DNA from: Armatimonadota bacterium | GTDB taxonomy: Bacteria > Sysuimicrobiota > Sysuimicrobiia > Sysuimicrobiales > Sysuimicrobiaceae | Direction: 5' to 3' | NCBI GenBank assembly: GCA_025059775.1 | Contig: JANXCW010000001.1 | Location: 221,549-285,548, forward strand | Length of the DNA stretch: 64,000 bases | Shown: one piece after another, positions 30,628 through 64,000 of the stretch | How positions within the stretch are numbered: the first letter of the stretch is position 1 | Layout of the letters: the number at the start of each line of letters is the position of its first letter | Position numbers and translations under genes: made by a program | Notes under the pieces: model-generated | The model's input: only the letters and a program-made list of their open reading frames with translations | What the model was told of the DNA's origin: nothing | Database searches by the model: none

Positions 30628-30644
30628 GGCACCTTAAAGGGGTA

Positions 30645-45219: not shown

Positions 45220-45228
45220 CGCCGCCTC

Positions 45229-46239: not shown

Positions 46240-46242
46240 GGC

Positions 46243-47769: not shown

Positions 47770-47785
47770 CGGGCAGGTGCCTCCC

Positions 47786-48067: not shown

Positions 48068-48069
48068 TT

Positions 48070-48501: not shown

Positions 48502-48515
48502 GGCACACCTCCGTC

Positions 48516-48860
48516 CTACCGCCGGCCCTCCAGGATGGCCGACCGCAGCATCTCCAACTTCGCGGAGAGCAGGGTGGTGAGGGCCATCATCAGGAGGCCC
48601 GTGCGTGCGATCTCCACGCTCTCCAGTTCCGGGTCCACCTCCGTCCCGTCCTGGCGGACGAAGGCCACCCCCTCCGACGGCGCCCCGTCCGCAGGCACCT
48701 CCTCCCACAGGGCCCGGAGGGTGGCCCCGAAGTCCACGTCCGCCCGCACGTAGCCCGGGGTGTGGGCATTGGCCAGGTTCGAGGCGAGAAGGGCCTGCCT
48801 GCGGCCCAGAGTCCGCAGGGAGGCCAGCAGGTACCGGCCCGTGGGATCCAACATAGCCAC
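48516..48860 (-). CDS. flgB: flagellar basal-body rod protein FlgB
   Basis: ORF 48516..48860. RQALLASNLANAHTPGYVRAD rod motif. First gene of the operon. Confidence 0.9.
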   Translation of the reverse strand: MAMLDPTGRYLLASLRTLGRRQALLASNLANAHTPGYVRADVDFGATLRALWEEVPADGAPSEGVAFVRQDGTEVDPELESVEIARTGLLMMALTTLLSAKLEMLRSAILEGRR

Positions 48861-48871
48861 CTTCGAAGCCT

Positions 48872-48887
48872 TGCAAGATCGGTGCCG
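48872..48887 (-). promoter_or_regulatory. sigma-54 promoter GGCAC-N5-TTGCA upstream of flgB
   Basis: Minus-strand reading tccGGCACcgatcTTGCAaggcttcgaagGTGgctATG. The -12 element ends only 11 nt before the first start codon, which implies a leaderless or very short-leader mRNA. Confidence 0.6.
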
Positions 48888-48917
48888 GAAATCCTAGAGT
48901 CTACGCAGGCGCGGGCG

Positions 48918-48946
48918 GGAAATTGCGGCAGGGATCTTGCAATTCC
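48918..48946. promoter_or_regulatory. AT-richer inverted repeat GGAAATTGC-N12-GCAATTCC upstream of the flgB sigma-54 promoter, overlapping the first possible start of the divergent GGDEF gene
   Basis: Seen directly. The centre is about 70 nt upstream of the predicted flgB start. Candidate enhancer/regulator site or the promoter of the cyclase gene. Confidence 0.3.
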
Positions 48947-48972
48947 GCGGCCACAAAGCGCTGGAGGCGAGG

Positions 48973-50913
48973 GTGAAACGCGCAGCTTCTTCCCAGGACC
49001 GTCTACGGATCCTCCTTGCGGTGGCGGAGCACCTGAACCGGCACACGGAGCTCCAGCCCATGCTGGATTCCGTCCTTCCCTTGATCCTGGGTCTCGTGGG
49101 GGTACCCGCGGGGTGGATCTCCCTGCGAACCGAGGAGGGGTTTCAGCTCGCGGCCGCGGCAGGCCTCCCGTCTGGACTGGAGGCAGAGGACCGCGCCGCC
49201 CTGCGCTGGTCCCCTTGCGCATGTCAGCGGATGGCCCTGGAGGGGCGGCTCGTGGAGCCCGTGAATCTCCTGGAGTGCGAGCGGCTCCTGGGCCTGGCTG
49301 AGAAGGCGGAGGGGCTGCGCCTGCACGTCTCGGTCCCTCTTCGAGCCAGGGACCGCATCCTCGGCATCCTCAACCTCGCGAAGGCCGATCCAAAACCCCT
49401 CCACCAGGCGGAGCGAGACCTGCTGTGGATGATCGGGGAGCAGCTCGGGGTGGCGGTGGATCGGGCCCGGCTCCTCGCGCGGATGCAGGAGATGCGGGAG
49501 CGGGAGGAGGAGCGGATCTCCCGCTTAGCCCAGGAGCTCGTGGACGCGAACACCCTGGAAGAAGTGGCCCAGGCGGTGTTCGAGGTGTTGCGGGAGGTCC
49601 TCGCGCCCGACCGCTTGGCCCTCCTGGTGGTGGATCCCTCGCAGACCTACCTGGAGCCGGTAGCGGGGTGGGGTTGGCCGGGGGAGCGGTTGGAGTTCGT
49701 CCGGCTCCCCATGCGGCCGCCGGACGCCAACGGTCCGGCGTGGGCCTTGCACACGGGCAAACCCCTCCTCGTGGATCTGGACAGCGCCCCCTATCGGGTC
49801 CCGGAGCGGTTGCGCCAGGCCGGGGTGCAGGCCGTTCTGCTCCTCCCCATGCTCTCCGGGAAGGAGCCCATCGGGGTTCTGACGGCCCACTACTTCTCCC
49901 GCCGGGAGGTTCCGGATTCGGTTCTGCAGTTCTGCATGCTCATCGGTCGCATCGCCGCGGGGGCCGTGGCTCGCGTACGGGAGCATCTCCGCTACCGCCT
50001 GCTCTTCGAACGGGTCCCGGTGGGGCTGTACCGGTCCACGCCCGCAGGAGAGATCCTGGACGCCAACGAAGCGCTCGTGCACCTTCTCCGATACCCAGAC
50101 CGGGAGACCCTCCTGCAGACGAACGCCGTCCAGCTCTACGTGGACCCCACGGATCGAAAGCGGTGGCGGCAACTCGTGGACGAGCATGGGGTGATCTCAG
50201 GGTTCGAGACGCGGTGGCGCCGCTACGACGGGTCAGAGATCTGGATCCGGGAGAGCGCCCGCGCCATCCGCGACGCCTCCGGGACCCCGGTGTACTACGA
50301 AGGGAGCGTGGAGGACATCACGGAGCAGAAGCGCTACGAGCTGGAGGTCACCTACCTCGCGAGCCACGACCCCCTCACGGGTGCTCTCAACCGTCGGAGC
50401 TTCCAGGAGGCCCTGGAGCGCAGGATCTCCCTGGGCCGGAACACAGCTCAGAAGGTTGCCCTGCTGTTCCTGGACCTGGACGGATTCAAACACGTGAACG
50501 ACCGGCTCGGACACCAGACCGGGGATACGGTACTCCGGGTGGTGGTCCACTGCATCCGCACCCGGCTGCGGGAGGCGGATCTCCTGGGGCGGCTGGGTGG
50601 GGATGAGTTCGGGGTTCTCCTCTACCCCGCGGATGAGGCAAGGGCCTGGACCGTCGCAGAGCGGATCGTGCGGGCGGTGCGGGAGTGGGCGCAGGCGGAG
50701 CTCGATGCCCGCCTACGGATCACCTGCAGCTGCGGCATCGCCCTTTTCCCGGACCACGCCCCCACCGCGGACGGCCTCCTCACCGCCGCGGACGCCGCCA
50801 TGTACGCGGTGAAGGTCCGGGGCGGGGATGGGGTGGCGGTGTTCGCCCAGGAGAACCCGGTTTTCACCGGCCCCCTCTGGAAGGACTCTGAGCCACAAAG
50901 CCCCCCTCCCTGA
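48973..50913 (+). CDS. GAF-GAF-PAS-GGDEF diguanylate cyclase (active GGDEF motif and RxxD inhibitory site present)
   Basis: ORF 48937..50913. Preferred start is GTG 48973 behind GGAGGCGAGG (TTG 48937 is possible). Two GAF domains, a PAS domain, then LTGALNRRSF...RLGGDEFGVLL, with READ five residues upstream of GGDEF. Confidence 0.85.
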   Translation: MKRAASSQDRLRILLAVAEHLNRHTELQPMLDSVLPLILGLVGVPAGWISLRTEEGFQLAAAAGLPSGLEAEDRAALRWSPCACQRMALEGRLVEPVNLLECERLLGLAEKAEGLRLHVSVPLRARDRILGILNLAKADPKPLHQAERDLLWMIGEQLGVAVDRARLLARMQEMREREEERISRLAQELVDANTLEEVAQAVFEVLREVLAPDRLALLVVDPSQTYLEPVAGWGWPGERLEFVRLPMRPPDANGPAWALHTGKPLLVDLDSAPYRVPERLRQAGVQAVLLLPMLSGKEPIGVLTAHYFSRREVPDSVLQFCMLIGRIAAGAVARVREHLRYRLLFERVPVGLYRSTPAGEILDANEALVHLLRYPDRETLLQTNAVQLYVDPTDRKRWRQLVDEHGVISGFETRWRRYDGSEIWIRESARAIRDASGTPVYYEGSVEDITEQKRYELEVTYLASHDPLTGALNRRSFQEALERRISLGRNTAQKVALLFLDLDGFKHVNDRLGHQTGDTVLRVVVHCIRTRLREADLLGRLGGDEFGVLLYPADEARAWTVAERIVRAVREWAQAELDARLRITCSCGIALFPDHAPTADGLLTAADAAMYAVKVRGGDGVAVFAQENPVFTGPLWKDSEPQSPPP

Positions 50914-51895
50914 GCCCGCTCCCCTCGATGAACTGAGGCTCACCCCCTCGGAGAGTCGGGTCGGACTCTTTAGCGCGCGGTGGGCGCGGTCTACTTCCGG
51001 ACGAGGAAGGGGGCGTGAGGGGCAGGTGCTTCACGGCCTGCGGGAGGGGAGGAGGAGGCGGAAGGGACGTGGGGGTGGTACGGTTCAGGATTGCAGACGG
51101 CTTTGGGGTGGCATGAGGAGCCTGCGACCCCCGGAGGATGTCCGGAAGGCCCGCCATGGGTCCTCCTTCCTTCGTCTCCACCTGCGGCTCCCGTGAGGAT
51201 CGGGCCACCAGGGTGACCTTCCCGGAGTGCTGGGCCAGCACGACCCGGGGGACCGAGGAAGCCGGCACCTCCAGGGTCACCGCCACGGTGCCCGGCACAC
51301 TCGGTTCCTGTCCTGTGGACCGGTCCACCCGGATCACCCTGGCTCCCCGGACAAGAACCCGGGTGACCGGGGAGGGCCGCGTGAAGGTGCCGAGCACGTC
51401 CACCCGATCCCCCGGGAGAAGCCGGCCCATGACCGCGTCCGTGGCGGGCACCACCACGGTGACTGCCTGCATCCCCTCCTCCACGGAGCCTGCCACGTCC
51501 ACCACTCCTCCGGGTCGCTGGAGGGCGTCCGTGGTGAGGATCTCTCCGGGCGCGATGGGGCGCCTCGCTGCCATGCCCGCGACCTCCTCGAACCCCGAGA
51601 CCGCGTTCGGAGGCACCCGGTCGCGCGGCAACCGCTCCTGCCGCACGGCTTGAGGAAGGATTGCTTCACCCGGGGAGATCCCGGATGCTGCCACGAGCAC
51701 CTGAGCCTCTGTGGGCGGTTCGTGGGCCGGCGAGGCCAGCATCCACACCCCGGCTGCCGAGAGGGCCAACACGAGGCCCGAGAGGGCCATCCCTGCGGGC
51801 ACCAGCACCTTGTCCAGCAGGGGGCCGAGTCCGTCGGTCCGCCTGGGCACCGGCTTCACCTTTCCGCCTTCCCGCTTCGCCCCATCCAAACCCAT
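50864..51895 (-). CDS. CpaB/RcpC-like (SAF-domain) protein with N-terminal TM anchor; FlgA-like alternative
   Basis: ORF 50864..52324 trimmed to MGLDGAKREGG... with TM MALSGLVLALSAAGVWML. SAF domain (VLVAASGISPGEAILPQAV...VAGMAARRPIAPGEILTTDAL) followed by the RcpC-like domain (GDRVDVLGTF...VLVRGARVIRVD). The 3' end overlaps the convergent cyclase gene by about 50 nt. Confidence 0.6.
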   Translation of the reverse strand: MGLDGAKREGGKVKPVPRRTDGLGPLLDKVLVPAGMALSGLVLALSAAGVWMLASPAHEPPTEAQVLVAASGISPGEAILPQAVRQERLPRDRVPPNAVSGFEEVAGMAARRPIAPGEILTTDALQRPGGVVDVAGSVEEGMQAVTVVVPATDAVMGRLLPGDRVDVLGTFTRPSPVTRVLVRGARVIRVDRSTGQEPSVPGTVAVTLEVPASSVPRVVLAQHSGKVTLVARSSREPQVETKEGGPMAGLPDILRGSQAPHATPKPSAILNRTTPTSLPPPPPLPQAVKHLPLTPPSSSGSRPRPPRAKESDPTLRGGEPQFIEGSGLREGGFVAQSPSRGGR

Positions 51896-51897
51896 CC

Positions 51898-53364
51898 TCA
51901 CTGCCCTCCGGGTTGGGAGTCCTTCCAGGGCCGGATCTGGGCGATCACCCTCCCGTCCACGTACACGAGGATCACGCACGGCCCCGGGCAGGAGACGGGT
52001 ACCCGCACAGAGGTCGCGCCCCGGTGCTCTGCCTCGTACAGCACCCGGGAGCCTTCTCCCTCTGCCACCACCACCCGAACCCGGGCCGTCCGGCCTACCT
52101 CGAGTTCTATCTCCCCGGTTCCCGCACGGCCCCCGGGCCTCCAGGCCACCCTTTCCCCCAAGCCCTCCCCGGGCCTGCCCGCCGAATCGGAGGGGGGACG
52201 AGGTTGGCCCAGGGGGAGAGCAGGTGCCTGCTCTACGGCCCGGGCCGCGGCATCCGCGAGCCTCACTCCCGAGCCCTCCAGGGCCGCCCGGAGCTTCGAG
52301 AGGGCTTCTGACCGGCTCTGCCACCCGAACACCACCACGCCCTCATATATCCCAACACCTCCCTCCTGCCCGACCCGATACAGCTCCCCCCTGCCGTAGA
52401 CGCCCTCGAAGGCTCCAGCCCCGGCCGCGGGATCCATCTCCATCTGCAGCCGCTCTCCCTCCCCCCACACCCGCAGGAGGATCCTCCCCGCGGGCAACCG
52501 GACCTCCAGGGTCCCTTCCGGAGGGCCCTGCTTTGTCATCATCACGTACCGCTGCCGCATGGCTAACCGCCCCGACGCCTGCATTCCCAGGAGTTCCACC
52601 GTGGCCTCGTGCTCATAGATCAGGGTGGCCGGCAGCACCGGGAGCCCGATCAGCAAAATCGAGACCGCGGAGGGCGCCCAGGCCTCCGACCAGTTGGTCC
52701 CCGTATACCGGAGGCGGAGCCGTACCAACAGGCCAAGCCCTTGCCCAGGGGGCACCACGTCCTCTTGGGCCCGGGCCTCCGGTTGGGGAGAGGGTTGCAC
52801 AACCGGTGCCGCAGGCGGGGAGGCCGTGGGTTGAGGGAGCGGGACCGGCGTGGGAGTGGGGGGTGGAGGTTGCGGGCTTGGAGGAGGGGCGAGAGGCCTC
52901 TGGGCCCGCGGCCGATGGGTAGCCGCAGCGCTCGGGGTCTTCTGGGGCGGGGAGGTCCGGGGGGCAGCAGGCCGGGGCGGAGCGATCTCTACCACGTCCG
53001 CGGTGCGGCGGCGGCCCACCTTCACCCAGAACACCAGGAGTTGTCCCCCCACCCGCACATGGAGGTTCGTGGCGCCGGCCCGTCCCACCGCGTACAGGGC
53101 CACGGTTCCCTCCCGGGCCCGCACCCACGCCCGCACCACCCGCTGGTTTCCCACCGCGATGTACTCCACGGGGCGTGGGAAAAGCAAAAACAGCGTGTAG
53201 CCGGGCTGGACCGTAAGAGGGACGCGCTGGCCGGGCGAAATGGCGAGCCTGAGCCGGGCCGGAGGCTCCGGGGGCGGGGCGGCCAGCACGGGAATGGCCA
53301 GCAAGAACGCGGCAACCACGGCCGCGGCCCGGAGGCCGGTGCGCCGGTTTCTCAGCCCTCCCAT
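51898..53364 (-). CDS. secreted protein with two CpaC/secretin-N-type beta domains flanking a Pro-rich linker, but no secretin domain
   Basis: ORF 51898..53364. Signal peptide. N-terminal domain RLRLAISPGQRVPLTVQPGYTLFLLFPRPVEYIAVGNQRVVRAWVRAREGTVALYAVGRAGATNLHVRVGGQLLVFWVKV resembles the pilus-formation N-terminal region of CpaC. A similar C-terminal domain follows (GEIELEVGRTARVRVVVAEGEGSRVLYEAEHRGATSVRVPV...ILVYVDGRVIAQI). Confidence 0.5.
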   Translation of the reverse strand: MGGLRNRRTGLRAAAVVAAFLLAIPVLAAPPPEPPARLRLAISPGQRVPLTVQPGYTLFLLFPRPVEYIAVGNQRVVRAWVRAREGTVALYAVGRAGATNLHVRVGGQLLVFWVKVGRRRTADVVEIAPPRPAAPRTSPPQKTPSAAATHRPRAQRPLAPPPSPQPPPPTPTPVPLPQPTASPPAAPVVQPSPQPEARAQEDVVPPGQGLGLLVRLRLRYTGTNWSEAWAPSAVSILLIGLPVLPATLIYEHEATVELLGMQASGRLAMRQRYVMMTKQGPPEGTLEVRLPAGRILLRVWGEGERLQMEMDPAAGAGAFEGVYGRGELYRVGQEGGVGIYEGVVVFGWQSRSEALSKLRAALEGSGVRLADAAARAVEQAPALPLGQPRPPSDSAGRPGEGLGERVAWRPGGRAGTGEIELEVGRTARVRVVVAEGEGSRVLYEAEHRGATSVRVPVSCPGPCVILVYVDGRVIAQIRPWKDSQPGGQ

Positions 53365-53374
53365 GGCGGTCCCC

Positions 53375-54385
53375 TCACGGGGTGGTGTACGTCACCTGCA
53401 GGGAGGGGGCGAAGAACTGCTCAAGGTCGTCAGCACCGCCGGGGGTCGGGATCACCGCGAAACGGAAACGAATCCCGATGTGGCTCCGGGAGAGCTGAGC
53501 CCGCACGAGGCTCGTGGCGTCGAAGGAGAAGGAAACCGGTGCAAGCGCCTGCACTCCCCCGAAGACCGCGATCGCGGAGGCAAGGGGAGAAGCGAGGTAG
53601 TCGTCCGGAGCCAGGATCCCGGGGGAGGAATCATCGAGCCAGGCCACCCCATCGGCCCAGAGGTTGTTTCCGGCACCCCATGGATTGCCAGTGACCGTCT
53701 GCCGCTGGCCGGTATAGACCGCGCTCACCACGTTCGCCCCGGGAACCTGGAGCTCCGGAGGGACCCGGAAGGCAACAAAGGCCGCGGCAAGGGCGTTCGC
53801 CCCCCCGCACGGGTTCTGCCCCGCAGCGTCAAAATCCTCTCCCGCCATCATCACAGGGGAGACCGCTCCGTTGCTGCACACTGTTCCCGCCACCACGGGC
53901 CCAAGCACCACGGTGACAGGGGCAGAGGGAGCCCGGGTGGTGAACCGCCACGTGTACGGCTGCAGCAGGACCCGGCCGTCTACGGCTTCCACCCCCGGCT
54001 CCACGGTCACCGTGTAGGAGGTGCTGTTCGCGAGCCGCAGCCCACTCAGCCGCACGCCCTGCCCGCCGGAGGTGAGGGTGCAGGAAGTTGGGCCCGCGAG
54101 GGGAGGGGGGTCGATGCTGATGGACAGGCACGCGGTGGTGCGTCGGATGATGTCGCTGAAGAGCACCACGATCTCCGTGAGCGGAGAAACTCCCGTCTCC
54201 CCGTCCCGAGGTACCGTGGAAACCACCTGAAGGAAGGGTGGGGGAGCCGGGGTGATGGGAGAGGCGGTGGGGGTTGGGGTGGGTGCGGGGGGCGGATTCG
54301 TCGCCGCCAGAAGCGGCAGGAGCCCACACCCAGACGTCAGGAGAACCGCAAGCAGGGCCAGGGAAAGCCTTCCGGTGCGGTGCAC
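53375..54385 (-). CDS. lipoprotein with Ig-like (SbsA/Big-type) domain
   Basis: ORF 53375..54535 trimmed to the GTG behind AAGGGGGCGAG. Lipobox LLTSGC. A Pro/Thr-rich linker, then Ig-like beta domains. Confidence 0.55.
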   Translation of the reverse strand: MHRTGRLSLALLAVLLTSGCGLLPLLAATNPPPAPTPTPTASPITPAPPPFLQVVSTVPRDGETGVSPLTEIVVLFSDIIRRTTACLSISIDPPPLAGPTSCTLTSGGQGVRLSGLRLANSTSYTVTVEPGVEAVDGRVLLQPYTWRFTTRAPSAPVTVVLGPVVAGTVCSNGAVSPVMMAGEDFDAAGQNPCGGANALAAAFVAFRVPPELQVPGANVVSAVYTGQRQTVTGNPWGAGNNLWADGVAWLDDSSPGILAPDDYLASPLASAIAVFGGVQALAPVSFSFDATSLVRAQLSRSHIGIRFRFAVIPTPGGADDLEQFFAPSLQVTYTTP

Positions 54386-54422: not shown

Positions 54423-54451
54423 ATCTTACGAGTGACCCCGGCGTGCGTCAA
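54423..54451 (-). promoter_or_regulatory. putative sigmaA promoter TTGACG-N17-TAAGAT for the lipoprotein gene
   Basis: Minus strand cgcTTGACGcacgccggggtcactcgTAAGATttcgg. The -35 overlaps the rpoN stop codon. Confidence 0.35.
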
Positions 54452-55839
54452 GCGGACCGCATCCGACGCCGCACCCGTGCGGAGGGGATCCCCGCCAGTT
54501 CCCGGTACTTGGTCACCGTCCGCCGCGCCAGGCAATACCCTTCCGCCCGCAGCCGCGCCACCAGATCCTCGTCCGTGAGGGGCCGGTCCAGGGGCTCTGC
54601 GGCCACCAGTTCCCGGATCCGCTCCCGCACGGGGAGGCTTGCGTCGAAGAACACCTCGAAGGAGACCACGCGACCATCGGGCATCTGCACGAACTTGCCC
54701 GTAACCGCCCGGCTCACCGTGGATTCACAAACTCCCAGTTCCCGAGCCACCTGCGTGAGGGTGAGGGGGCGGAGGTACCGGGGGCCGTGGTCGAGGAATG
54801 CCCGCTGGTAGCGGGCGAGGAACTCCGCACACCGGTAGAGCATGGTGTTGCGCCGGCGCACCGCCTCGATAAAGAGCCGGCCCCGGCGCAGGTGAGCCCG
54901 CAGCCGATCCCGCTCTTCAGGCGTGAGGTTCGCGGCCAGGAGCGCCCGCCGCACGAGGGGGTTAATGCGGAGGGTGAGGGCACCGCTGGCCACGAGTTCC
55001 ACCCGGTAGCCCTCCTCCGTGCGGGTGATCACCACGTCCGGAACCGCCAGTTCCTCAGGCCGTACCTCGCGCCCCTCATGCTCCGCGTGGAAGGCCTCCG
55101 CGGGCGCGGGAACCGTGTGGGTCCGCAGGTAGCGAAGGATCTCGTGCACGGTCTCCGGCCGCACCCCCAATCGCGCGGCCACCGCCTCGTGCCGCCCCCG
55201 GGCCAGATCCTCCAGGTGGTGAGCCACCAGGGCCTCGGCCAGCCCGCGGAGCGGGTGGTCCGGAAGCCGCTCCAGTTGCAGCAGCAGGCACTCCCGCAGG
55301 TCCCGGGCCCCGACGCCCGCGGGCTCCAGGGCCTGCACGGCCCGCAGGGCCTGCTCCGCGAGCGCCTCGGGGATCCCGAGCTCCGCGGCCACGTACCGGA
55401 GCTCCCCGTCGAGGTAGCCCCGGGGATCCAGGTAGCCCAGCAGGTGCAGGGCCACCCGTTGGATCTTCGGGTCCCGCACGCTCACCCGCAGCTGTGCCTC
55501 CAGGTGGTCCAGGAGGTTCGTGGGCGCCCGGGCAAACTCCAGGGGGGATGGACGTTCCTCCCGGGCGCCCGGATCCCTCCGCTCCCACCCGAACCGGGCC
55601 GAGCCGCCCAGGAGGCTGTAGCCGCACCGGCCGCACGAGATGCCCTCCGCTTCCATGCCACACTGGGGGCAGATCCACGGCACCCGCTCCAGCACCGGGT
55701 TCTCCGAGAGCTCCTGCTCCACCCGACTCACCAGCTCCTGAAGGGAGAGGGGCAGGATGGCGTTCGCCGCGAGCACCACTTGCAGGGCTCGGGCCTCAGG
55801 CTGAACCACCGCTACGGGTGCGAGCTCCAGGCTGACCAT
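54448..55839 (-). CDS. rpoN: RNA polymerase sigma-54 factor RpoN
   Basis: ORF 54448..55839. Region I (Q/L-rich). Core-binding region. HTH and RpoN box ARRTVTKYRE near the C-terminus. Confidence 0.9.
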   Translation of the reverse strand: MVSLELAPVAVVQPEARALQVVLAANAILPLSLQELVSRVEQELSENPVLERVPWICPQCGMEAEGISCGRCGYSLLGGSARFGWERRDPGAREERPSPLEFARAPTNLLDHLEAQLRVSVRDPKIQRVALHLLGYLDPRGYLDGELRYVAAELGIPEALAEQALRAVQALEPAGVGARDLRECLLLQLERLPDHPLRGLAEALVAHHLEDLARGRHEAVAARLGVRPETVHEILRYLRTHTVPAPAEAFHAEHEGREVRPEELAVPDVVITRTEEGYRVELVASGALTLRINPLVRRALLAANLTPEERDRLRAHLRRGRLFIEAVRRRNTMLYRCAEFLARYQRAFLDHGPRYLRPLTLTQVARELGVCESTVSRAVTGKFVQMPDGRVVSFEVFFDASLPVRERIRELVAAEPLDRPLTDEDLVARLRAEGYCLARRTVTKYRELAGIPSARVRRRMRSA

Positions 55840-55850
55840 ACCTTCCTCCG

Positions 55851-56213
55851 CTACCGAAGGGCCCTCCGGATGGCCTCCACCAGGCGTGCCTGATCGAAGG
55901 GCTTTACTACGAAGTCCCGGGCACCCGCCTGGATGGCCTCCACCACCAGGGCCTGCTGTCCCATGGCGCTCACCATGACGATGCGGGCCGCGGGATCCCG
56001 GCGCAGGATCTCCCGCACCGCCCGCACTCCATCCATCTCCGGCATGGTGATGTCCATGGTGACCACGTCGGGTTTGGTCTCCTCGTACCGCTCGATGGCT
56101 TCCAAGCCGTTGCTGGCCTCCCCCACCACCTGGAAACCACTGTTGGTGAGGACCTCGCGGAGCATGGCCCGCATGAAGGCCGCGTCGTCCACTACCAGGA
56201 CCCTAGCCGACAT
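55851..56213 (-). CDS. cheY: chemotaxis response regulator CheY
   Basis: ORF 55851..56213, 120 aa. Canonical receiver (VLVVDDAAFMR, MDITMPEMDG, MVSAMGQ, FVVKPF). Confidence 0.9.
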   Translation of the reverse strand: MSARVLVVDDAAFMRAMLREVLTNSGFQVVGEASNGLEAIERYEETKPDVVTMDITMPEMDGVRAVREILRRDPAARIVMVSAMGQQALVVEAIQAGARDFVVKPFDQARLVEAIRRALR

Positions 56214-58131
56214 GCGCCAGTTCCTCCTCTCGTACCGCGAGGCGCACCAACCGCGCGGGGTCCAGGATGAGGGCCACCCGCCCGTCCCCTAGGATGGTGG
56301 CCCCCAGCACCCCGGGCACCTCGCCGAGGTAGTTCCCCAAGGGTTTCACCACGACCTCCCCCTCGCCCACCACCCCGTCCACCCACAGCCCCACCCGCCG
56401 CCGGCCGAAGCTCACCACCACGCACAGGAGCCGGTCTGGGTCCGGAGGTACGGGAAGATCCAGGATCTCGTGCACGGACACCAGGGGGAGCACCGAACCC
56501 CGCAGCACCGTGGTGCGGCACGCACCCACCCGGTGTACCCGGGAGGCCGGGATCTCCACGATCTCGTGCACCGACGAGATGGGGACCACATAGCGCTCCC
56601 CCCCGCAGGTCACCGTCACAGCCCGCACGATGGCCAGGGTGAGGGGAAGCCGCAGGAGGAATCGGGTGCCCCGGCTCCGCTCCGTCTCCACCTCCAGGCT
56701 TCCGCCCACCGCCTGCACGCCAGCCCGCACCGCATCCATGCCCACGCCCCGGCCGGAGACGTCCGTGACCACCGCGGCGGTGCTGAGCCCCGGGTGGAAG
56801 ATGAGTTCCACCGCCTCCCGCTCCGTCAGGCGCGCGGCGGCCTCTGGGCTGAGGATGCGCAGCTCCACGGCCCGGCGGCGCACCCGATCCGTGTCGATCC
56901 CCCGACCATCGTCCTCCACCACCACCACGATCCCGTCCTCCTGGTAGGCCGCCAGGCGCAGCCGGCCCGTCCGCGGCTTTCCGAGCCGCTCCCGCTCCTC
57001 CGGGGACTCGATGCCGTGGTCCACCGCGTTGCGCACGAGGTGCATGAGCGGGCCGCCGATCTGCTCCAGGATGGACCGGTCCAGCTCTACGTCCTGCCCC
57101 TCCAGCACCACCTCCACCTCCTTGCCGGACCGTCGTGCCAGGTCCCGCACGTACCGGGGGAAGCGGCTGAAGAGGTGCTCCATGGGCAGCATGCGGGTCT
57201 TGAGCACCTGGGCCTGCAGGTCCGTGGCCACGCGGCCCAGGTGAGCCGTGGCGTCCAGGATCTCCTCTAGGAGGCCGTGGGCCCTCTCGCCCGCGCGCAG
57301 TCGGTGGGCGATCTGCTGGAACCGGATGCGATCCACCACCAGTTCCCCCACCAGGTTCATGATCCGGTCCAACCGCTCCACATCCACCCGCACGGTGCGC
57401 AGGGCGGCCCGCCGGCTCACCTCCGGATCCTGCAGGAGCTTGCCCCGAGCCTGCGGGCCCAGATCCAGCCACCGTTCGTCCCGCGGGGCCTCCGAAGCGG
57501 GCAGGACCCGTACGGATTCCACGTCTGCGCCCGAGAGGAGCTCCAGGAGGACCTCTGGCTCCCGCACCCGGGCCCGGCAGCTCAGCTCCAGATCCAAGGC
57601 CCCCCCACGGATCTCCTCCTCGGAGGGCACCACCTGTTCGACCTCGCCTTCCCGGCGAAGTATCTGCAGCAGGGCGAGTGCCCGGGCTGCCCGCATGGGG
57701 CAGTCCTCCCGCAGCCGGATCCGCACCTCCACGGGGTGGAGCGTCTCCGCGGAGGCTCCCTCCTGCCAGGCCTCCAACTGCCGCACCAGCTCCCCCACCT
57801 CCGTGCGCTCCTCGCCTGTCTCCGCCACCTCCTGCCGCAGGGATCGGAGCGCATCCACGCACGCGAGCAGGAGGTCCGCCAAGCCCTCCGCGCTCCGGCG
57901 TCCCCCTCGCAGCGCGTCCAGCACCTCCTCCATGCGGTGCGTGAGTTCCGCCATGCGTCGGAACCCGAGCGCCGCCGCACTTCCCTTGAGGGTGTGGGCG
58001 CTGCGAAAGAGGCTCTGCACGAGCCCTGCATCCGCGCCCTCGCGCTCCAGCTGCAGCACCCCCTCCTCCAGGATCTGCAGGTGCTCCTCTGCCTCCGCGA
58101 GGAAGGTGGGGAGGAGCTTAGCGAGGTGCAC
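56203..58131 (-). CDS. cheA: chemotaxis histidine kinase CheA
   Basis: ORF 56203..58131. The HPt domain carries the SAHTLKGSAAALG motif. Dimerisation and HATPase_c domains (HLVRNAVDHGIE, DDGRGID, GRGVGMD) and a C-terminal CheW-like domain follow. Confidence 0.9.
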   Translation of the reverse strand: MHLAKLLPTFLAEAEEHLQILEEGVLQLEREGADAGLVQSLFRSAHTLKGSAAALGFRRMAELTHRMEEVLDALRGGRRSAEGLADLLLACVDALRSLRQEVAETGEERTEVGELVRQLEAWQEGASAETLHPVEVRIRLREDCPMRAARALALLQILRREGEVEQVVPSEEEIRGGALDLELSCRARVREPEVLLELLSGADVESVRVLPASEAPRDERWLDLGPQARGKLLQDPEVSRRAALRTVRVDVERLDRIMNLVGELVVDRIRFQQIAHRLRAGERAHGLLEEILDATAHLGRVATDLQAQVLKTRMLPMEHLFSRFPRYVRDLARRSGKEVEVVLEGQDVELDRSILEQIGGPLMHLVRNAVDHGIESPEERERLGKPRTGRLRLAAYQEDGIVVVVEDDGRGIDTDRVRRRAVELRILSPEAAARLTEREAVELIFHPGLSTAAVVTDVSGRGVGMDAVRAGVQAVGGSLEVETERSRGTRFLLRLPLTLAIVRAVTVTCGGERYVVPISSVHEIVEIPASRVHRVGACRTTVLRGSVLPLVSVHEILDLPVPPDPDRLLCVVVSFGRRRVGLWVDGVVGEGEVVVKPLGNYLGEVPGVLGATILGDGRVALILDPARLVRLAVREEELAHVG

Positions 58132-58630
58132 CGTCCCCCTCCGGGTGCGTAAGGGCGGGCTCGAGGTCCCGCAGGGCCTGCTGCTCAGCGATCTCCAGTA
58201 CCCGGTGCAGGTCCAGCAGGAGGATGAGCCCCTCCCCGTGCTTGGCGACGCCCCGAAGGAACGCCACCTGGCCTGTGGCCAGCAGCTCCTCCGGGGGCAC
58301 CACGCTGCGAGCGGGAATCCGCAACACCTCCAGCACCGCGTCCACCACCACGCCCACCCGGCTTCCGTTCATCTCCACCACCACGATGCGGGTCGCGCCG
58401 TCCCGCTCCCCCGCGGGGAGCCCGAACCGCCGCCGCAGGTCCAGCACGGGGATCACCTGCCCCCGGAGGTTGATGACCCCCTCTACGAACTCGGGTGCCC
58501 GGGGGATGCGGGTCACCTCCTGCATCCGGATGATCTCGTGCACGTGCTCGATGGCGAAGCCGTACCGCTCCCGGTCGAGCCGCACCACCACCAGGTGCTG
58601 CTCCAGCTCACCCGTGGCTTTCCGGTCCAC
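58118..58630 (-). CDS. cheW: chemotaxis coupling protein CheW
   Basis: ORF 58118..59137 trimmed to the GTG behind GGGAGGTGA. QHLVVVRLDRERYGFAIEHVHEIIRMQEVTRIPRAPEFVEGVINLRGQVIPVLDLRRRFGL. Confidence 0.85.
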   Translation of the reverse strand: MDRKATGELEQHLVVVRLDRERYGFAIEHVHEIIRMQEVTRIPRAPEFVEGVINLRGQVIPVLDLRRRFGLPAGERDGATRIVVVEMNGSRVGVVVDAVLEVLRIPARSVVPPEELLATGQVAFLRGVAKHGEGLILLLDLHRVLEIAEQQALRDLEPALTHPEGDGAPR

Positions 58631-58635
58631 CGCAC

Positions 58636-60063
58636 TCACCTCCCTGACTCCAGCTCCACGCGGACCTCGCCGCTTTGGAGGGCCTCCACGAAGACATCCA
58701 CCACCTCCGGATCGAACTGCCGTTCCCGCTGGGCCCGCAGCTCCTCCATCGCGGCCTCCACGGGAACCGGGGGGCGGTAGATGCGGCCCGCGGTCATCAC
58801 CTCGAAGGCGTCCACCACGGCCAGGATGCGGGCCCCCACCGGGATCTCCTTTCCCGCAAGCCCCATGGGGTATCCGCGGCCGTCCCACCGTTCGTGGTGG
58901 TGCAGGACCCAGCGCACCACGTCCTCCCCGAATCCCGCCGCGGAGAGGATCTCCGCGCCCATCACCGTGTGCCGCTTGACGACCTCGTACTCCTCCGGGG
59001 TGAGGGGTCCGGGCTTGAGCAGGATGGCGTCGCGGATGCCGATCTTGCCCACATCGTGCAGCATCCCCGCCACCCGCAACTCCTGCAGGCTGAGCTCCGA
59101 AAACCCCAACCGCCGGCCCACGGCCACCGCGTAGCACGCGAGCCGTTCACTGTGCCCCCGCAGGGTGGCCTCATGGAGCTCACAGGCATAGGCCAGGGCG
59201 TTCACGAGGCTCTGGTTCGCCTGCTGGACCCGGCGCACGAGATCCACCTGGAGGAGCGGAAGAGCCCCCAGCACACCCAGCAGGTTCAACAGCTCCCGGT
59301 GCACGGGGCCGAAGGGTTCGCGGGACCGGGTTCGGAAGACGGTGAGGGCTCCCAGGGTACGGCCCGCGGTGGCCAGCGTCGCGGTAAGCACCTCCCCCGA
59401 GTCCTCTGCGGGTAGGCGCGCATGGGTCAGGCGGTCGGGCAGGAGCGTCCACAGGTGTTCCGCCAGCGAGCCGCCCGCCTGCTGCACCGTGGCCACCACC
59501 AGGTCCTGGGCCTGCGGGTTCAGGGTCACCACCGCGGCCCGATCCGCGCCCAGGCTGTGCCGGGCGATCTCCACCAGCCGCCGCAGCACCTCCTCCGGGC
59601 TGCCGTCTGCGGGCACCAGCTCCCGCAACCGCTGGAGCGGCCGCAGCACCGCAAGCTGCAGCTCTTCCCGGAAGATCCGGTGAGCGCGCACCGCGGAGTG
59701 TACCTCCTCCGCGAGAGCCTCGCCCGTAACAGGCGGTGCCAGCAGGGCCCGCGCGCCCTGTCGCACCGCCTCTGGCATCCGCGCGGGCGGGGCCACGGCC
59801 ACCACGGGGAGGTGCGGGTACGTCCGGGCGAGCACGGCCACGGCCTCCAGGCCCTCCTCGCCCATGGCCGCCACGTCCACCGCGAGGGCGTCTGCCTCCC
59901 CGCTCAGAAGCGCGGCCCGCGCCGCGTCCAGGGTGGGGACCCAGCGGAAGGCCACCGCGTTTCCGCCCCCCTCCAGGGGATCCGGCCTCAGCACCACGCA
60001 CCGCAGCGGCTCCACGCGGCTGCCTCCTACCCGTGGGATTGCAACTCCCGTGCCGTGCACCAC
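58636..60063 (-). CDS. HD-GYP c-di-GMP phosphodiesterase with N-terminal degenerate receiver and GAF domains
   Basis: ORF 58636..60063. HD-GYP motifs MLHDVGKIGI and HHERWDGRGYP. The N-terminal REC-like domain keeps the Asp (ALAVDV) but lacks the conserved Thr and Lys (VVAVAPP, ALLAPPV). Confidence 0.8.
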   Translation of the reverse strand: MVHGTGVAIPRVGGSRVEPLRCVVLRPDPLEGGGNAVAFRWVPTLDAARAALLSGEADALAVDVAAMGEEGLEAVAVLARTYPHLPVVAVAPPARMPEAVRQGARALLAPPVTGEALAEEVHSAVRAHRIFREELQLAVLRPLQRLRELVPADGSPEEVLRRLVEIARHSLGADRAAVVTLNPQAQDLVVATVQQAGGSLAEHLWTLLPDRLTHARLPAEDSGEVLTATLATAGRTLGALTVFRTRSREPFGPVHRELLNLLGVLGALPLLQVDLVRRVQQANQSLVNALAYACELHEATLRGHSERLACYAVAVGRRLGFSELSLQELRVAGMLHDVGKIGIRDAILLKPGPLTPEEYEVVKRHTVMGAEILSAAGFGEDVVRWVLHHHERWDGRGYPMGLAGKEIPVGARILAVVDAFEVMTAGRIYRPPVPVEAAMEELRAQRERQFDPEVVDVFVEALQSGEVRVELESGR

Positions 60064-61242
60064 TCAGGAAGCCCCGTCCAGCCGGATGTCCGCGGCGCCG
60101 ATCCACTCGTCCTGGGTCAGGATGACGGCCCGGTGGATCACCGCCTCCAGTTCCCGCACGTTCCCGGGCCACGAGTACTCCAGGAGCTTGCGCAGGGCCG
60201 CTTCCCGCAGGCCCCGCACGGGCTTGCCCATCTGTTTCCGGTACTTCTGCACGAAGAACTCCGCGAGCAGGGGCACGTCCTCCACCCGCTCCCGGAGGGG
60301 CGGAAGCCGCAGGGTCACCACGTTGAGCCGGTAGTACAGGTCCTCCCGGAAGGTCCCCTCCTGCACCATCCGCACAAGGTCCCGGTTGGTGGCCGCCACC
60401 ACCCGGCAATCCACCTTGATGGGTCGGGTGCCGCCCACCCGTTCCACCACCCGTTCCTGCAGCACCCGCAGCAGCTTCACCTGCATCCGGGGTGACATCT
60501 CACCCACCTCGTCCAGGAAAATGGTGCCCCCATGGGCCTGCTCGAACTTCCCCGGTCGGGAGGTGAGCGCATGGGTGTAGGCACCTTTCTCGTGGCCGAA
60601 GATCTCCGTCTCCAGCAGGGTTTCGGGGATGGCGCCGCAGTGCATCACCACCAGCGGCCCGCTGGCTCTGCGGCTCTGCAGGTGGATGGACCGGGCCACC
60701 AGCTCCTTGCCTGTGCCGCTCTCACCCACCAGCAGCACCGTGGCGTCCGTGGGAGCCACGATGGAGGCCACCCGCAGGACCTCCAGCATGGCAGGGCTCG
60801 TCCCCACCACCCCGTCGAACCGGTACGCCCGAGCTAGATCCGCCTGCAGGCGGGCCCGTTCCTCCCGCAGCCGCCGCTCCTGGGCCAGCTCCAGTACCCG
60901 GACGAAGAGCCGCTCCTCCCACCCGGGCCCGGCAAGGAAGTCCAGGGCGCCGTTGCGCACCGCGACCACCGCCTCCTCCACGGTGCCTTCGGGACGCACC
61001 ACGAGCACCGGGCAACCCGGGAAGGCGGCCACCAGTTCCGGCACCGCCCTCGGATCCACGGTGACCACCACGTGGGCCGAGCCCGGATCCTTCCCCCGGC
61101 TCATCAGAACATCCGCCCCCTCCTGCTCCAACCGCACCCCCACGGCCTCCAACAGGCCCTGCCCGTCCACCAGGAGGACGGTGAGGCCCCGCAAGGGGCT
61201 CGCGAAGGATTCCGCGGTGCTCGTGATGGCGGCAGCCGGCAT
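60064..61242 (-). CDS. sigma-54-dependent AAA+ activator (bEBP) with degenerate receiver domain and no C-terminal HTH DNA-binding domain
   Basis: ORF 60064..61317. The start is uncertain: ATG at 61242 is preferred, and TTG 61317 or ATG 61296 are alternatives. Walker A GESGTGKELVARSIH. GAFTGA-equivalent EIFGHEKGAYTHA. R-finger/sensor II ...LPPLRERVEDVPLLAEFF...NVRELE. The protein stops about 25 aa after sensor II with no Fis-type HTH. The REC-like N-domain lacks the DD pair and the conserved Lys (VLLVDGQG..., FLAGP). Confidence 0.8.
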   Translation of the reverse strand: MPAAAITSTAESFASPLRGLTVLLVDGQGLLEAVGVRLEQEGADVLMSRGKDPGSAHVVVTVDPRAVPELVAAFPGCPVLVVRPEGTVEEAVVAVRNGALDFLAGPGWEERLFVRVLELAQERRLREERARLQADLARAYRFDGVVGTSPAMLEVLRVASIVAPTDATVLLVGESGTGKELVARSIHLQSRRASGPLVVMHCGAIPETLLETEIFGHEKGAYTHALTSRPGKFEQAHGGTIFLDEVGEMSPRMQVKLLRVLQERVVERVGGTRPIKVDCRVVAATNRDLVRMVQEGTFREDLYYRLNVVTLRLPPLRERVEDVPLLAEFFVQKYRKQMGKPVRGLREAALRKLLEYSWPGNVRELEAVIHRAVILTQDEWIGAADIRLDGAS

Positions 61243-61326
61243 CGCGCCCGATCCGTTCCGGTTGCGAGGATCCCAAGGGGACTCGCGTCCGAACATTATG
61301 CAAAAACCGTGCCGCAAGTCCGGACG

Positions 61327-63096
61327 CTACACGGTGAACCGGGCCACGAGCCGCTCCAGCTCCCCGGCCGCCTGCGCCAGGCGTTGAGCGCTTTGGGAGA
61401 CCTCCCGGGTGCTGCTGGCGATCTGCTCCGTGGCGGCACTCCCCTCCTCCGCGGAGGCGCTGTTCTGCTGCGCCAGTTGCAGCAGCTGCGCCACGATCCC
61501 CTCAATCTGCTGGGCGCTCGCCGCCAGCTGCTGGGTGGCCGCGGAGATCCCCTCCACCCGGGCGGTGACATCGTGGACGCTGGCGCGGATCCGCTGGAAG
61601 GCCTCCCCGGCCTCGTCCACGAGTTTCACCCCACTCGCCACCTCCCGCGCGCCCTGCTCCATGGTTCGCACAGCCCGCTCCGTCTCCCCCTGGATCTCCT
61701 CCAGGATCCCCGCGATCTGCTCTGCTGCCTGCGCGCTCTCCTGCGCCAACTTCCGCACCTCCTCCGCCACCACCGCAAACCCCCGCCCCTGCTCCCCAGC
61801 CCGCGCCGCCTCAATGGCCGCGTTCAGCGCCAAAAGATTCGTCTGCGACGCAATCTCCGTGATCAACTTCACGATCCGCCCGATGTTCCGCCCTCGCTCC
61901 CCCAGCGCCCCGATCACCCGACCCATCTCCTCCGCGGCCCGTCGGATCTCGCCCATGGCCTGCACGACCCGTTCCACCCGCAGGGCTCCCTCCACCGCGG
62001 CCTCCCGGGCCTGCTGGGCCAGGGAGGCCGTACGTCCCGTGTTCTGGGCCACCTCCTCCAAGCTCTGGCTGATCTGTCGCACGGTCTCCGTGGTCTCCGT
62101 CACGCTCCGGACCTGCTGCTCCGCCCCACCCGCCACCTGCTGTACCACCCGGCTGATCTCCTCCGCGCTCCGGCTCACCTGCTCGCTGCCTGCGGCCACC
62201 TGCTGAGCAGCGCTCGCCACCTCCCCCGCGGTGGCGGCGATCCGGTGGACGAGGGTGAGTAGCTGCTCCGCGGTCTGGTTGAAGCAGTGAGCCACCCGAC
62301 CGAGCTCGTCCTCCCCCCGCACGGGGATCCGCACCCGAAGGTCTCCGTCCGCCAGGGCCATGAGGGCGGAGCGAACCGCGGCCACCTGGCTCCCTATCCC
62401 CCGCGCGGAGAACACCGCCAGTCCCCCGCCCACCACGAACCCGAGCAGCAGCACAGTCCACAGGGCCCTGCGCATCCCCGCGGCGCGGGCCCCGGCGGCG
62501 CTCAATTGGGCCCGGGTGGCACTTTCAAAGGCATCCTGCACCTGGCCGATGTACTGTCGGGTCGGCTCCAAGGTGCTGAGCACCGTGGTCCGCGCCCGCT
62601 GGAGGGCGGTGTATGTAGGAAGCTCTCCCCGCTCGTACAGCTTCCACACCGCGGTGATCTCCTGCCGCCACCGGTGCACCCCGTCCGCAAATCCGTCCAG
62701 CAGCACGACGATCCCCTGTTCGGGTACGAGCTGCTTGGCCTGGGTTGCCCGCGCCACCGCGCGGTTCAGGTTCTCATCCACCGCCTGGGCCAGCTCCCGA
62801 TAGCTGGCCTGCCAGGTCGGCGTGGCCAGCAGGAGGTAGAAAGCCGAAAGGGCCCGGTACAGGTCCCGGTCCGCCTGGAGCACCAAGGCCAGGGCCGCGG
62901 CCCTCCGGTTCCCCAGGGTCTCCAGGTCCCGGTGCACCGTGCCCACGCTCCGCAGCCCTACTAGACCCACCGCAAGCCCCAGGAGCGTGGGAACAACCGC
63001 CAGGGCCAGCAGCTTCGTGCGCATGGACCAGTTGGAGACGCGCAGCCGGTGCTTCCATCCGTGCTCCATGCCCGCTCCCTCCTGCCCGTACCTCAC
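61327..63096 (-). CDS. methyl-accepting chemotaxis protein (TM - periplasmic 4-helix-bundle sensor - TM - HAMP - MCP signalling domain)
   Basis: ORF 61327..63096. Conserved signalling hairpin [51 protein letters not shown]. Confidence 0.85.
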
Positions 63097-64000
63097 ACCT
63101 GGAAGGCCGCCACGAGCCGCTGGAGATCCGTGGCGAGCTGGGCCAAGGACTGCCCGTGTCGGGCGAGCTCGTGGCTACTGGCGGAGATCTGCTCCGTGGC
63201 CGCGCTCACCTGCTGGGCAGACGCGCTGTTCTCCTCGCTCAGGCCCGCAAGATCCCCCGCGGCCGCGTCCACCTGCCGGGCCGCGCCCGCCAGCTCCTCC
63301 AGGAATCCCCGCACGTGCTCCACCCGCCGCACCAGCCCCTCCACGCTGCGCAGGATCTCGCTGAAGGCCTCGTCCGCCCGGCCGATGACCTCCGCGCCCC
63401 GGGCCACCTCCCTGCTCGTGTGCTCCATGGTTCGCACGGCCCGCTCCGTCTCCCCCTGGATCTCCTCCAGGATCCCCGCGATCTGCTCTGCTGCCTGCGC
63501 GCTCTCCTGCGCCAACTTCCGCACCTCCTCCGCCACCACCGCAAACCCCCGCCCCTGCTCCCCAGCCCGGGCTGCCTCAATGGCCGCGTTCAGCGCCAGC
63601 AGGTTCGTCTGCGACGCAATCTCCGTGATCAACTTCACGATCCGCCCGATGTTCCGCCCCCGCTCCCCCAGCGCCCCGATCACCCGACCCATCTCCTCCG
63701 CGGCCTCCTGGATCCCCGCCATGGCAGCCCGGGCTTCCTCCACCTGCTCCCGGCCGCGCACCGCGGCTCGCGAGGCCTGGTCCGCGGCCTGGGCAGCGTC
63801 CGTGGCCTCCCGGGCCGCCTCGCCCAGGGATTGGGTCATGTGCTGGATGGCCTGCACCACCTCTCCTACCCTCCGGGCCTGCACTTCCGCCCCCTGGGAG
63901 ACACCTTGGACCGCGGTGGCGATCTCAGACACGCTGCGGTTAGTTTGCTCGCTGGTGGCCGCCATCTCCTCGGCGGAGGCAGTGAGGGTGCTCGAGACCC
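63093..64000 (-). CDS. second methyl-accepting chemotaxis protein, C-terminal signalling part only; the 5' end lies beyond the right edge
   Basis: ORF 63093..63965 continues upstream without a stop. It has the same MCP signalling hairpin. Its stop overlaps the downstream MCP start. Confidence 0.8.

Follow-up and report, generated by a model that had tools for sequence, protein, structure and literature searches.

In a 64,000-nt stretch of contig JANXCW010000001.1 (the window; G+C 69-72%), which comes from a hot-spring bacterium of the phylum Sysuimicrobiota, we found a minus-strand gene cassette that encodes the sigma factor sigma-54 (RpoN) together with a sigma-54 activator, or bacterial enhancer-binding protein (bEBP), without a DNA-binding domain (DBD). 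We estimate a probability of roughly 0.7 that the cassette belongs to a sigma-54 flagellar and chemotaxis regulon enclosing its own sigma factor and activator, which would imply positive feedback because both rpoN and the bEBP gene sit inside that regulon. The cassette is the head of a flagellar/chemotaxis supercluster of ~40 kb. What is new is how familiar parts are combined, while the signalling pathway itself is of no new type; as all of these parts are of known kinds, specialists should see in it an extension and no surprise. What it would provide is a first testable picture of flagellar gene control in the Sysuimicrobiota/CSP1-3, a widespread uncultivated phylum, as well as a natural sigma-54 activator that would be missing both of the usual control handles, phosphorylation and enhancer binding.

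Promoter motifs support this reading. Upon scanning the window for GGCAC-N5-TTGCA, we obtained six exact matches against 0.09 expected from shuffled sequences, all six on the minus (coding) strand and all in short gaps that open directly behind the stop codon of the gene before, at 17-60 nt from the next start codon, with none in the ~23 kb non-flagellar part of the window. The six-site consensus, GGCACGG-N3-TTGCA, is the textbook -24/-12 element; sigma-54 promoters were defined by a GG and a GC element with a 10-nt spacing (TGGCACG-N4-TTGCW) that precede a gene on its own strand, and the window sites show this arrangement. Two of the sites lie within the cassette and the others precede flagellar genes (Table 1). 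Beyond the window, comparison with relatives that are 94% and 68-77% identical (referred to by L numbers, L006 and L002 being duplicates of L013 and L018) showed the motif before the genes for the methyl-accepting chemotaxis protein (MCP), the bEBP and the HD-GYP protein in L005, L007, L013-L016 and L018, in the same gene order and between diverged intergenic flanks, while the short contig L021 has the MCP and bEBP sites only. The bEBP site, GGCACGGTTTTTGCA, is conserved in position in 7 related loci although its flanks diverge, and relatives from at least five other species-level genomes share both the promoters and the gene order of the cassette.

Read along the minus strand, Pfam gave the cassette order MCP, MCP, bEBP, a protein with pseudo-receiver (pseudoREC), GAF and HD-GYP domains, CheW, CheA, CheY and RpoN. 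The outermost MCP is a fragment whose frame runs past the window end, with no stop upstream of the listed ATG. The genes from that of the HD-GYP protein to rpoN overlap or lie at most 11 nt apart, and rpoN is predicted to be co-transcribed with the che genes, as the initial annotation had held. That annotation had, however, described everything from the MCP genes to rpoN as one operon: its gene order and domain architectures stood, while the promoter motifs point to a cassette of at least three sigma-54-type transcription units and not a single operon. Its statement that the bEBP stop abuts the HD-GYP start also had to be given up, as the real start is a GTG at 60015, leaving a 48-nt gap that contains a sigma-54-type promoter. 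In loci where the cassette is embedded among flagellar genes, this HD-GYP promoter would in effect be the promoter of an HD-GYP-che-rpoN-flgB... operon. A sigma-70 promoter scan of the cassette returned a single sigma-70-like site, at the rpoN stop (54451-54423, minus strand), and convincing internal terminators were absent from the cassette.

Taken as a mechanism, RpoN-holoenzyme would bind GGCACG-N4-TTGCA ahead of four or more flagellar units, the bEBP gene, the HD-GYP-cheW-cheA-cheY-rpoN unit and, in the relatives, the MCP gene, and the 392-aa bEBP would remodel the closed complexes from solution, enhancer-free, in the manner of FlgR and CtcC. With the bEBP gene and rpoN both behind promoters of their own type, this would act as a self-reinforcing on/off motility switch, and the fliA-like sigma factor encoded at the distal end of the cluster would serve the late genes. 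Genes for PilZ/YcgR-like, GGDEF and HDOD proteins lie in the same cluster, and the HD-GYP protein would most simply lower cyclic di-GMP (c-di-GMP) when the regulon is on, relieving a YcgR-like PilZ brake. The sequences themselves show the domain content, the degenerate receivers, the conserved synteny and the conserved promoter motifs; from these features we infer promoter use, enhancer independence, feedback and gating of the activator.

Several points weigh against this picture. Promoter use rests on motif matches, and the motifs before flgB (48854-48886) and flhB (30633-30659) end only 17-18 nt from the ATG. The feedback needs a basal promoter, and none was found with a sigma-70 consensus scan that is weak at 70% GC. 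Should the genome encode several bEBPs, an activator without a DBD would face a specificity problem. The AlphaFold2 (AF2) model of the bEBP has low confidence in its AAA+ part, with a mean predicted local distance difference test (pLDDT) score of 61, and both the gating by its pseudo-receiver and its partnership with the HD-GYP protein are things that we only infer.

Further features of the leaders and gaps were observed in passing. At flgB and flhB the motif placement predicts 5' untranslated regions (5'UTRs) of ~7 nt that start inside an AAGGTG Shine-Dalgarno-like sequence. Downstream of the bEBP promoter in distant relatives, a GC-rich hairpin (GGGTCCC-loop-GGGACCC) is followed by ATCGGGGGGAGC, which together may be a conserved 5'UTR element or a ribosome-binding region; the bEBP leader in the window and L013 differs from this hairpin leader of L014, L015, L016 and L018. 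On the plus strand, the divergent gap between flgB and a GGDEF gene contains the near-match CGGCAGGGATCTTGCA (GGCAG-N5-TTGCA) at 48926-48941, and it is a possibility that this diguanylate cyclase gene, too, belongs to the regulon.

The activator has lost its DNA-binding domain as a family. Numbered on a 417-aa open reading frame (ORF), Sigma54_activat covers residues 171-336 (PF00158, E 6.7e-70) and AAA_lid_14 residues 342-412, and the protein terminates 5 aa beyond the lid; its start is an ATG, the same as in the NCBI record (P0001). The domain annotation by hidden Markov models that the initial annotation had proposed found Sigma54_activat here and HD_5 in the HD-GYP protein, and gave no match to HTH_8 or Response_reg in the bEBP. 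A database search returned ~20 bEBP clusters of 391-414 aa with the same domain content, all from 'Armatimonadota' metagenome-assembled genomes (MAGs), and the next-best matches were canonical REC-AAA-HTH proteins, ~60% identical in AAA+. Upon alignment, the C-termini of all 20 family members, from different MAGs, lie 5-10 residues past the lid, whereas the canonical relatives have 50-60 further residues that carry a Fis-type helix-turn-helix (HTH). As every orthologue is equally short, the missing domain is a family trait. A mis-called stop hiding an HTH, which the initial annotation had named as what would overturn its claim of a bEBP without one, was ruled out by the same comparison (20/20 orthologues short), and Pfam and the alignment both bear that claim out.

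The AAA+ part has kept its ATPase motifs. Walker A (GESGTGKE), Walker B (FLDEVGE) and the arginine-finger region (REDLYYRL) are conserved across the family and in bEBPs of the PDB, so that by its motifs the protein is predicted to be an ATPase-competent AAA+ activator. The sigma-54-contacting loop reads GAYTHA in 20/20 members instead of GAFTGA; hence, of the intact sigma-54 interaction module reported earlier, the GESGTGKE/AAA+ part held and the GAFTGA did not. Variants of this loop are known, with F3 changed to Y in TouR, G5 replaced in FlgR, and H at G5 listed as putatively tolerated (Francke et al., PMC3162934).

The N-terminal ~120 residues of the bEBP align with the receivers of canonical relatives and of the window CheY, yet they would not be able to serve as a phospho-acceptor. 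Family members either lack the acidic pair or vary at it, the phospho-Asp loop has gone with a 7-residue deletion, and Arg or Ala stands in for Thr and Gly for Lys. The degeneration thus goes beyond the loss of the DD pair and Lys that had been noted before. Pfam returned nothing for the isolated domain even at E <= 10; hhalign matched it to canonical receivers with a probability of 97.7% (E 2e-12), and in the AF2 model a (beta-alpha)5 fold at the N-terminus (pLDDT 75-89) is joined to AAA+ by a 30-residue helix. With the Asp loop, Thr and Lys lost and no linked kinase, control of the bEBP by phosphorylation is excluded by sequence.

The domain evolves fast, with a mean pairwise identity of 42% within the family compared to 87% for AAA+. 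This rate, the invisibility to Pfam and the presence of a fliA-like sigma gene would also suit a scenario in which the bEBP and the receivers are decaying remnants without a regulatory role and the flagellar genes are under sigma-70/sigma-28 as in Bacillus, a scenario to which we give very little credence, as the ~20 bEBP clusters (loci from at least six species-level genomes) have kept the same length and near-invariant AAA+ motifs (87%), the sigma-54 motifs are kept while their flanks are not, and at least 90% conservation is seen for residues P75, P78, V79, V81, T87, V88, E90, V92, A94, R96, G98, A99 and D101 along beta4-alpha4-beta5 of the pseudo-receiver. The sequence match to NtrC1 in the PDB (1ny5) begins at residue 74, within the receiver. 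In activators of the NtrC1/DctD type, the receiver dimer represses ring assembly. Because the beta4-alpha4-beta5 face and the coiled-coil linker of the bEBP resemble those of such activators, its pseudo-receiver may by analogy still gate assembly of the AAA+ ring through a non-phospho input.

The leading candidate partner for such gating would be the always-adjacent pseudoREC-GAF-HD-GYP protein. Its orthologues, 457-482 aa long, begin V/MEPLRCV, a start that places the window gene's first codon at GTG 60015. In the public NCBI record for the source MAG the gene is given as a 287-aa HD-GYP protein (P0125), the C-terminal part only, with the pseudo-receiver and most of GAF left out. Pfam recognised HD_5 (E 1.3e-40) and, weakly, GAF (E 1.8e-4), and the HD and HHExxDGxGYP motifs are invariant in the family alignment; the protein is a predicted c-di-GMP phosphodiesterase. 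At its N-terminus, Response_reg scored only E 0.012, and hhalign gave 98% to canonical receivers. The Asp is retained, Thr has become Ala and Lys has become Pro, in agreement with what had been described before, and the acidic pair is absent as well. Both N-terminal domains are therefore degenerate receiver homologues that cannot be conventional phospho-acceptors, and CheY, 89-99% identical across the relatives, is the sole canonical receiver (DD, D, S and K present), as the initial annotation had stated. The AF2 model of the HD-GYP protein (mean pLDDT 86) gave PmGH (4mcw, E 2e-18), DvhD and PA4781 as best Foldseek matches (listed entries 9rbz and 4r8z), and it also matched NtrC1 and PleD, in line with a receiver-like N-terminal part. 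It shares with RpfG-type REC-HD-GYP proteins the same catalytic domain behind a receiver fold, canonical REC-(GAF)-HD-GYP relatives being ~30% identical over the full length, and differs from them in a receiver without acidic pair, Thr and Lys.

The bEBP may be controlled through contact with CheY or with the HD-GYP protein, and a constitutively active bEBP that is regulated through its expression alone is roughly as probable as gating by the HD-GYP protein. In a fuller version, the pseudo-receivers would be docking modules through which a partner, either the ligand-sensing GAF-HD-GYP protein or CheY/CheA reporting the state of the chemoreceptors, gates sigma-54 flagellar transcription in combination with the self-activating rpoN/bEBP loop. 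We consider this version rather improbable; if true, it would amount to a phosphorylation-independent, enhancer-independent bistable switch wired to the chemosensory/c-di-GMP state.

An input of c-di-GMP into the bEBP itself is unlikely. The earlier suggestion of nucleotide binding as in FleQ came with a proposed alignment, and in that alignment (phmmer, FleQ 8pb9) the pocket was not conserved: the c-di-GMP contacts R138, R144, R151, R185, E330 and R334 of FleQ (PMC10723142) correspond to the bEBP residues A, D, P, R, F and K. FleQ-like binding was rejected, since four of the six contacts are replaced non-conservatively and a fifth changes from R to K. The FleQ domain PF06490 gave no match in the bEBP even at E <= 10, and no FlhG/FleN was present among the scanned window ORFs. 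Pseudomonas FleQ and Vibrio FlrA nonetheless resemble the bEBP as flagellar class-II sigma-54 activators with a non-phosphorylated receiver-like N-terminus and a link to c-di-GMP; unlike it, FleQ has HTH_8 and the partner FleN.

The surroundings of the cassette suggest what it may regulate. In L002, the locus of a 68%-identical orthologue, the series MCP-bEBP-HD-GYP-CheW-CheA-CheY-RpoN stands within a flagellar supercluster, with flgN, flgK, flgL, fliW, csrA, flagellin, flaG, fliD, fliS and fliT upstream and, beginning 31 nt past rpoN, flgB, flgC, fliE, fliF, fliG, fliH and fliI downstream; L007 has the identical arrangement. Window flagellar genes were located by tblastn against annotated relatives and by Pfam scans of minus-strand ORFs, and the stretch runs from flgB to the fliA-like sigma gene (48.9-23.6 kb). 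Downstream of fliI follow an SLT (FlgJ-like) gene, flgD and flgE; motA, motB, fliL, fliM and fliY; fliP, fliR and the HDOD gene; and then flhB, flhA, the YcgR-like PilZ gene, cheB, cheR and the fliA-like gene. The remaining 23 kb of the window hold metabolic and transport genes, with neither a kinase nor a second bEBP among the ORFs scanned there.

This context decided against the view, put forward in the initial annotation, of a Che-like pathway with alternative outputs, in which the MCPs, CheA and CheY would drive transcription through the bEBP and c-di-GMP hydrolysis through the HD-GYP protein, by contact and not by phosphotransfer. Its genes are adjacent and, by prediction, partly co-transcribed, cheY directly precedes rpoN in all relatives, and Xanthomonas offers a partial precedent: its VemR, whose gene lies between rpoN2 and fleQ, receives phosphate from CheA and binds a FleQ-like protein (PMC9218911); a VemR-RpoN2 interaction is ascribed in that paper to Wu et al. 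2019. The Xanthomonas rpoN2-vemR-fleQ module is likewise flagellar and likewise places rpoN side by side with a single-domain, CheY-like regulator and a bEBP whose receiver-like domain is not phosphorylated; it differs in its gene order, in the DBD of FleQ, and in that the window cheY belongs to a full cheW-cheA-cheY unit and an HD-GYP gene to the module. Against alternative outputs, the cassette is contiguous with flagellar structural genes, and because the cluster, with its fliA-like gene, also encodes CheB, CheR, FliM and FliY, the che genes are the flagellar cluster's own chemotaxis set. The bEBP/HD-GYP/rpoN trio of L017 comes without che genes and is thus not che-dependent, both pseudo-receivers are without phosphotransfer residues, and common sigma-54 promoters, together with an origin from a two-component arrangement with a PAS kinase, would account for the adjacency. 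Hence we find alternative outputs quite improbable, and it fits the bEBP and HD-GYP genes better to regard them as putative members of a sigma-54 flagellar regulon, with the bEBP as its regulator.

The analogy to Myxococcus Che3/CrdA did not hold up for similar reasons. Che3 resembles the cassette as a che cluster beside an NtrC-like sigma-54 activator. In CrdA, however, the receiver can be phosphorylated and a DNA-binding domain is present, and Che3 stands apart from motility structures. The window has neither feature: the outputs are without phospho-sites and the cassette is contiguous with the flagellar genes.

A different possibility is that the bEBP acts in mixed rings with a DNA-binding bEBP encoded elsewhere, which would give promoter specificity. 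In Rhodobacter (Cereibacter) sphaeroides, FleT acts together with FleQ. FleT with its dedicated rpoN2 resembles the cassette in being a flagellar bEBP without a DBD; it is also without an N-terminal domain (PMC3162934), whereas the window bEBP keeps its pseudo-receiver and linker, and a partner bEBP was not seen. The FleT precedent (PMC3162934) would favour mixed rings, and the phylum does encode canonical REC-AAA-HTH bEBPs, of the kind found above as next-best matches. These canonical relatives, however, belong to other assemblies as far as they were looked up, no second bEBP was present in the 64 kb window or in the 20 kb around any relative, and the promoters lie in gaps of 48-84 nt right after the upstream genes, without conserved upstream sequence. 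We regard mixed rings as unlikely, if still worth keeping in view.

For a regulon whose activator would act from solution, the closest known counterparts are H. pylori FlgR and Chlamydia CtcC, which the initial annotation had named and which proved fair comparators; activators without a DBD (type Ic) make up ~4% of bEBPs and include both (PMC3162934). Helicobacter pylori FlgR is likewise an enhancer-free flagellar sigma-54 activator without DNA-binding domain, and it has a GAFTGA variant at position 5 (PMC3162934). It differs in having a phosphorylatable receiver and the kinase FlgS, where the window bEBP has no Asp loop, Thr, Lys or linked kinase, and in that rpoN and the activator gene of the window lie inside the flagellar cluster behind sigma-54-type promoters. 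Of the marks of a FlgR-type system, the missing DBD and, at the level of motifs, the flagellar sigma-54 promoters were thus found, and a phosphorylatable receiver with its kinase was not. The check for a cognate FlgS-like kinase suggested previously returned none in the scanned window ORFs or within 10 kb upstream in L002, L005, L006 and L007.

Relatives of the phylum suggest how this state may have arisen. The closest matches in genome collections were Candidatus Sysuimicrobium calidum (94%) and Ca. Tepidifontimicrobium thermophilum (77%). Sysuimicrobiota is the renamed CSP1-3, includes Ca. Sysuimicrobium calidum and appears as 'Armatimonadota' in older NCBI records; in the description of the phylum, flagellar and chemotaxis genes are noted only as present, in two families (PMC11604079). 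A literature search on Armatimonadota flagellar sigma-54 retrieved nothing. In L010-L012, from other MAGs labelled 'Armatimonadota', a kinase (PAS-HisKA-HATPase) and a REC-only protein are encoded after fliD-fliS-fliT, and then come a 451-aa bEBP whose receiver is canonical and whose tail is HTH-like, a plain 334-aa REC-HD-GYP protein without the GAF match seen in the window clade, CheW and CheA, with this bEBP and this REC-HD-GYP protein in the same position as those of the window cassette. In L008 (4001-6866), where flagellar genes are not in view, rpoN is immediately preceded by the gene for a canonical REC-AAA-HTH bEBP, and in L017 (a groundwater MAG, 1-4013), a bEBP with a receiver and no HTH_8 match, an HD-GYP gene and rpoN follow one another, with no che genes between them and with the motif before the HD-GYP gene. 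The bEBP/HD-GYP/rpoN trio would accordingly seem the older unit, and because other lineages have a PAS kinase and a canonical REC-bEBP there, the window clade has probably lost phospho-control, that is, the kinase and the phospho-sites, together with the DNA-binding domain. With the PAS kinase, the canonical REC-bEBP and the REC-HD-GYP protein in the same position, the sister lineages offer an evolutionary intermediate, and the whole would form a comparative system for receiver gating of AAA+ assembly and for the start-up of a sigma factor within its own regulon.

Table 1. Positions of the cassette, its promoters and neighbouring genes in the window and, where a locus is named, in relatives.
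Feature	Position	Strand	Evidence or remark
MCP fragment, C-terminal signalling part	63093-64000	-	Pfam MCPsignal, E 1e-45
MCP, 580 aa (4HB_MCP_1, HAMP, MCPsignal)	61327-63069	-	Pfam; ATG at 63069; 88% identity to L005 MCP
Sigma-54-type promoter GGCACGGTTTTTGCA, bEBP	61299-61313	-	Motif scan; in 84-nt MCP-bEBP gap
bEBP, 392 aa (pseudo-receiver, coiled-coil linker, AAA+, lid)	60064-61242	-	Pfam, family alignment, hhalign, AF2
Sigma-54-type promoter GGCACGGGAGTTGCA, head of HD-GYP-cheW-cheA-cheY-rpoN unit	60040-60054	-	In 48-nt bEBP-HD-GYP gap
HD-GYP protein, 459 aa from GTG at 60015	58636-60015	-	Pfam, alignment, AF2, Foldseek
CheW	58118-58630	-	Pfam CheW, E 7.5e-40; GTG start 5 nt past HD-GYP stop
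CheA (Hpt, P2, dimerisation, HATPase_c, CheW domains)	56203-58131	-	Pfam; 14-nt overlap with cheW end
CheY, canonical receiver	55851-56213	-	Pfam Response_reg, E 2e-34; DD/D/S/K present
RpoN, sigma-54 (activator-interacting, core-binding and DNA-binding domains; Cys4 insert)	54448-55839	-	Pfam; start 11 nt past cheY stop
Big_5	~53378-54301		Insert between rpoN and flgB
Pro-rich 488-aa protein, weak pilus-N match	51898-53364		Insert
SAF/RcpC (CpaB- or FlgA-like)	50885-51883		Insert
GAF-GAF-PAS-GGDEF gene	48898-50913	+	Insert; opposite strand
Sigma-54-type promoter, flgB	48872-48886	-	Motif scan
flgB, flgC, fliE, fliF, fliG, fliH	44575-48854	-	tblastn with L002 proteins, 66-90% identity
fliI	43257-44756	-	Pfam
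Sigma-54-type promoter, SLT (FlgJ-like) gene/hook unit, flgD and flgE further downstream	42956-42970	-	Motif scan
Sigma-54-type promoter, fliL, fliM, fliY	36041-36055	-	Motif scan
Sigma-54-type promoter, flhB, flhA, ycgR-like PilZ, cheB, cheR, fliA-like	30645-30659	-	Motif scan
FliA-like sigma-70-family factor, distal end of cluster	23604-24794	-	Pfam Sigma70_r2, r3, r4; stop-to-stop ORF, sigma domains at residues 174-386
bEBP 5'UTR with hairpin	L014 9669-9730; L015 4403-4460; L016 5526-5585; L018 9878-9940		Relatives
PAS kinase, REC-only, canonical REC-bEBP and REC-HD-GYP next to fliT and cheW	L010 1923-6575		Relative

The RpoN of the cassette was recognised in all its parts, with PF00309 at 25.4 bits (cut-off 23.8), PF04963 at E 2.6e-41 and PF04552 at E 1.5e-35, and its RpoN box reads ARRTVTKYR. 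Directly after region I it carries a Cys4 motif, CPQCG-x7-CGRC (residues 57-72; window 55624-55671, minus strand), an insert that, judged by its motif, resembles a zinc ribbon within region II. The motif is invariant in 5 RpoNs of the phylum, including one whose locus shows no flagellar genes in view. Of the 120 best sigma-54 homologues, 100 contain the pattern C..C-x(5-25)-C..C, many being Chloroflexota sequences. No mention of such an insert was found in the literature searched; in H. pylori, a separate zinc-ribbon protein, FlgZ, stabilises RpoN (PMC3372290).

Other neighbours deserve a brief mention. In the window, L005, L006 and L013, a 5.6 kb insert (48898-54301 in the window) parts rpoN from flgB. 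Within the flagellar stretch, all on the minus strand, a Na/Ca exchanger gene (36096-37199) lies between motB and fliL, the HDOD protein is encoded at 30665-31470 between fliR and flhB, and the YcgR-like protein, of PilZN-PilZ architecture, at 26957-27571 after flhA.

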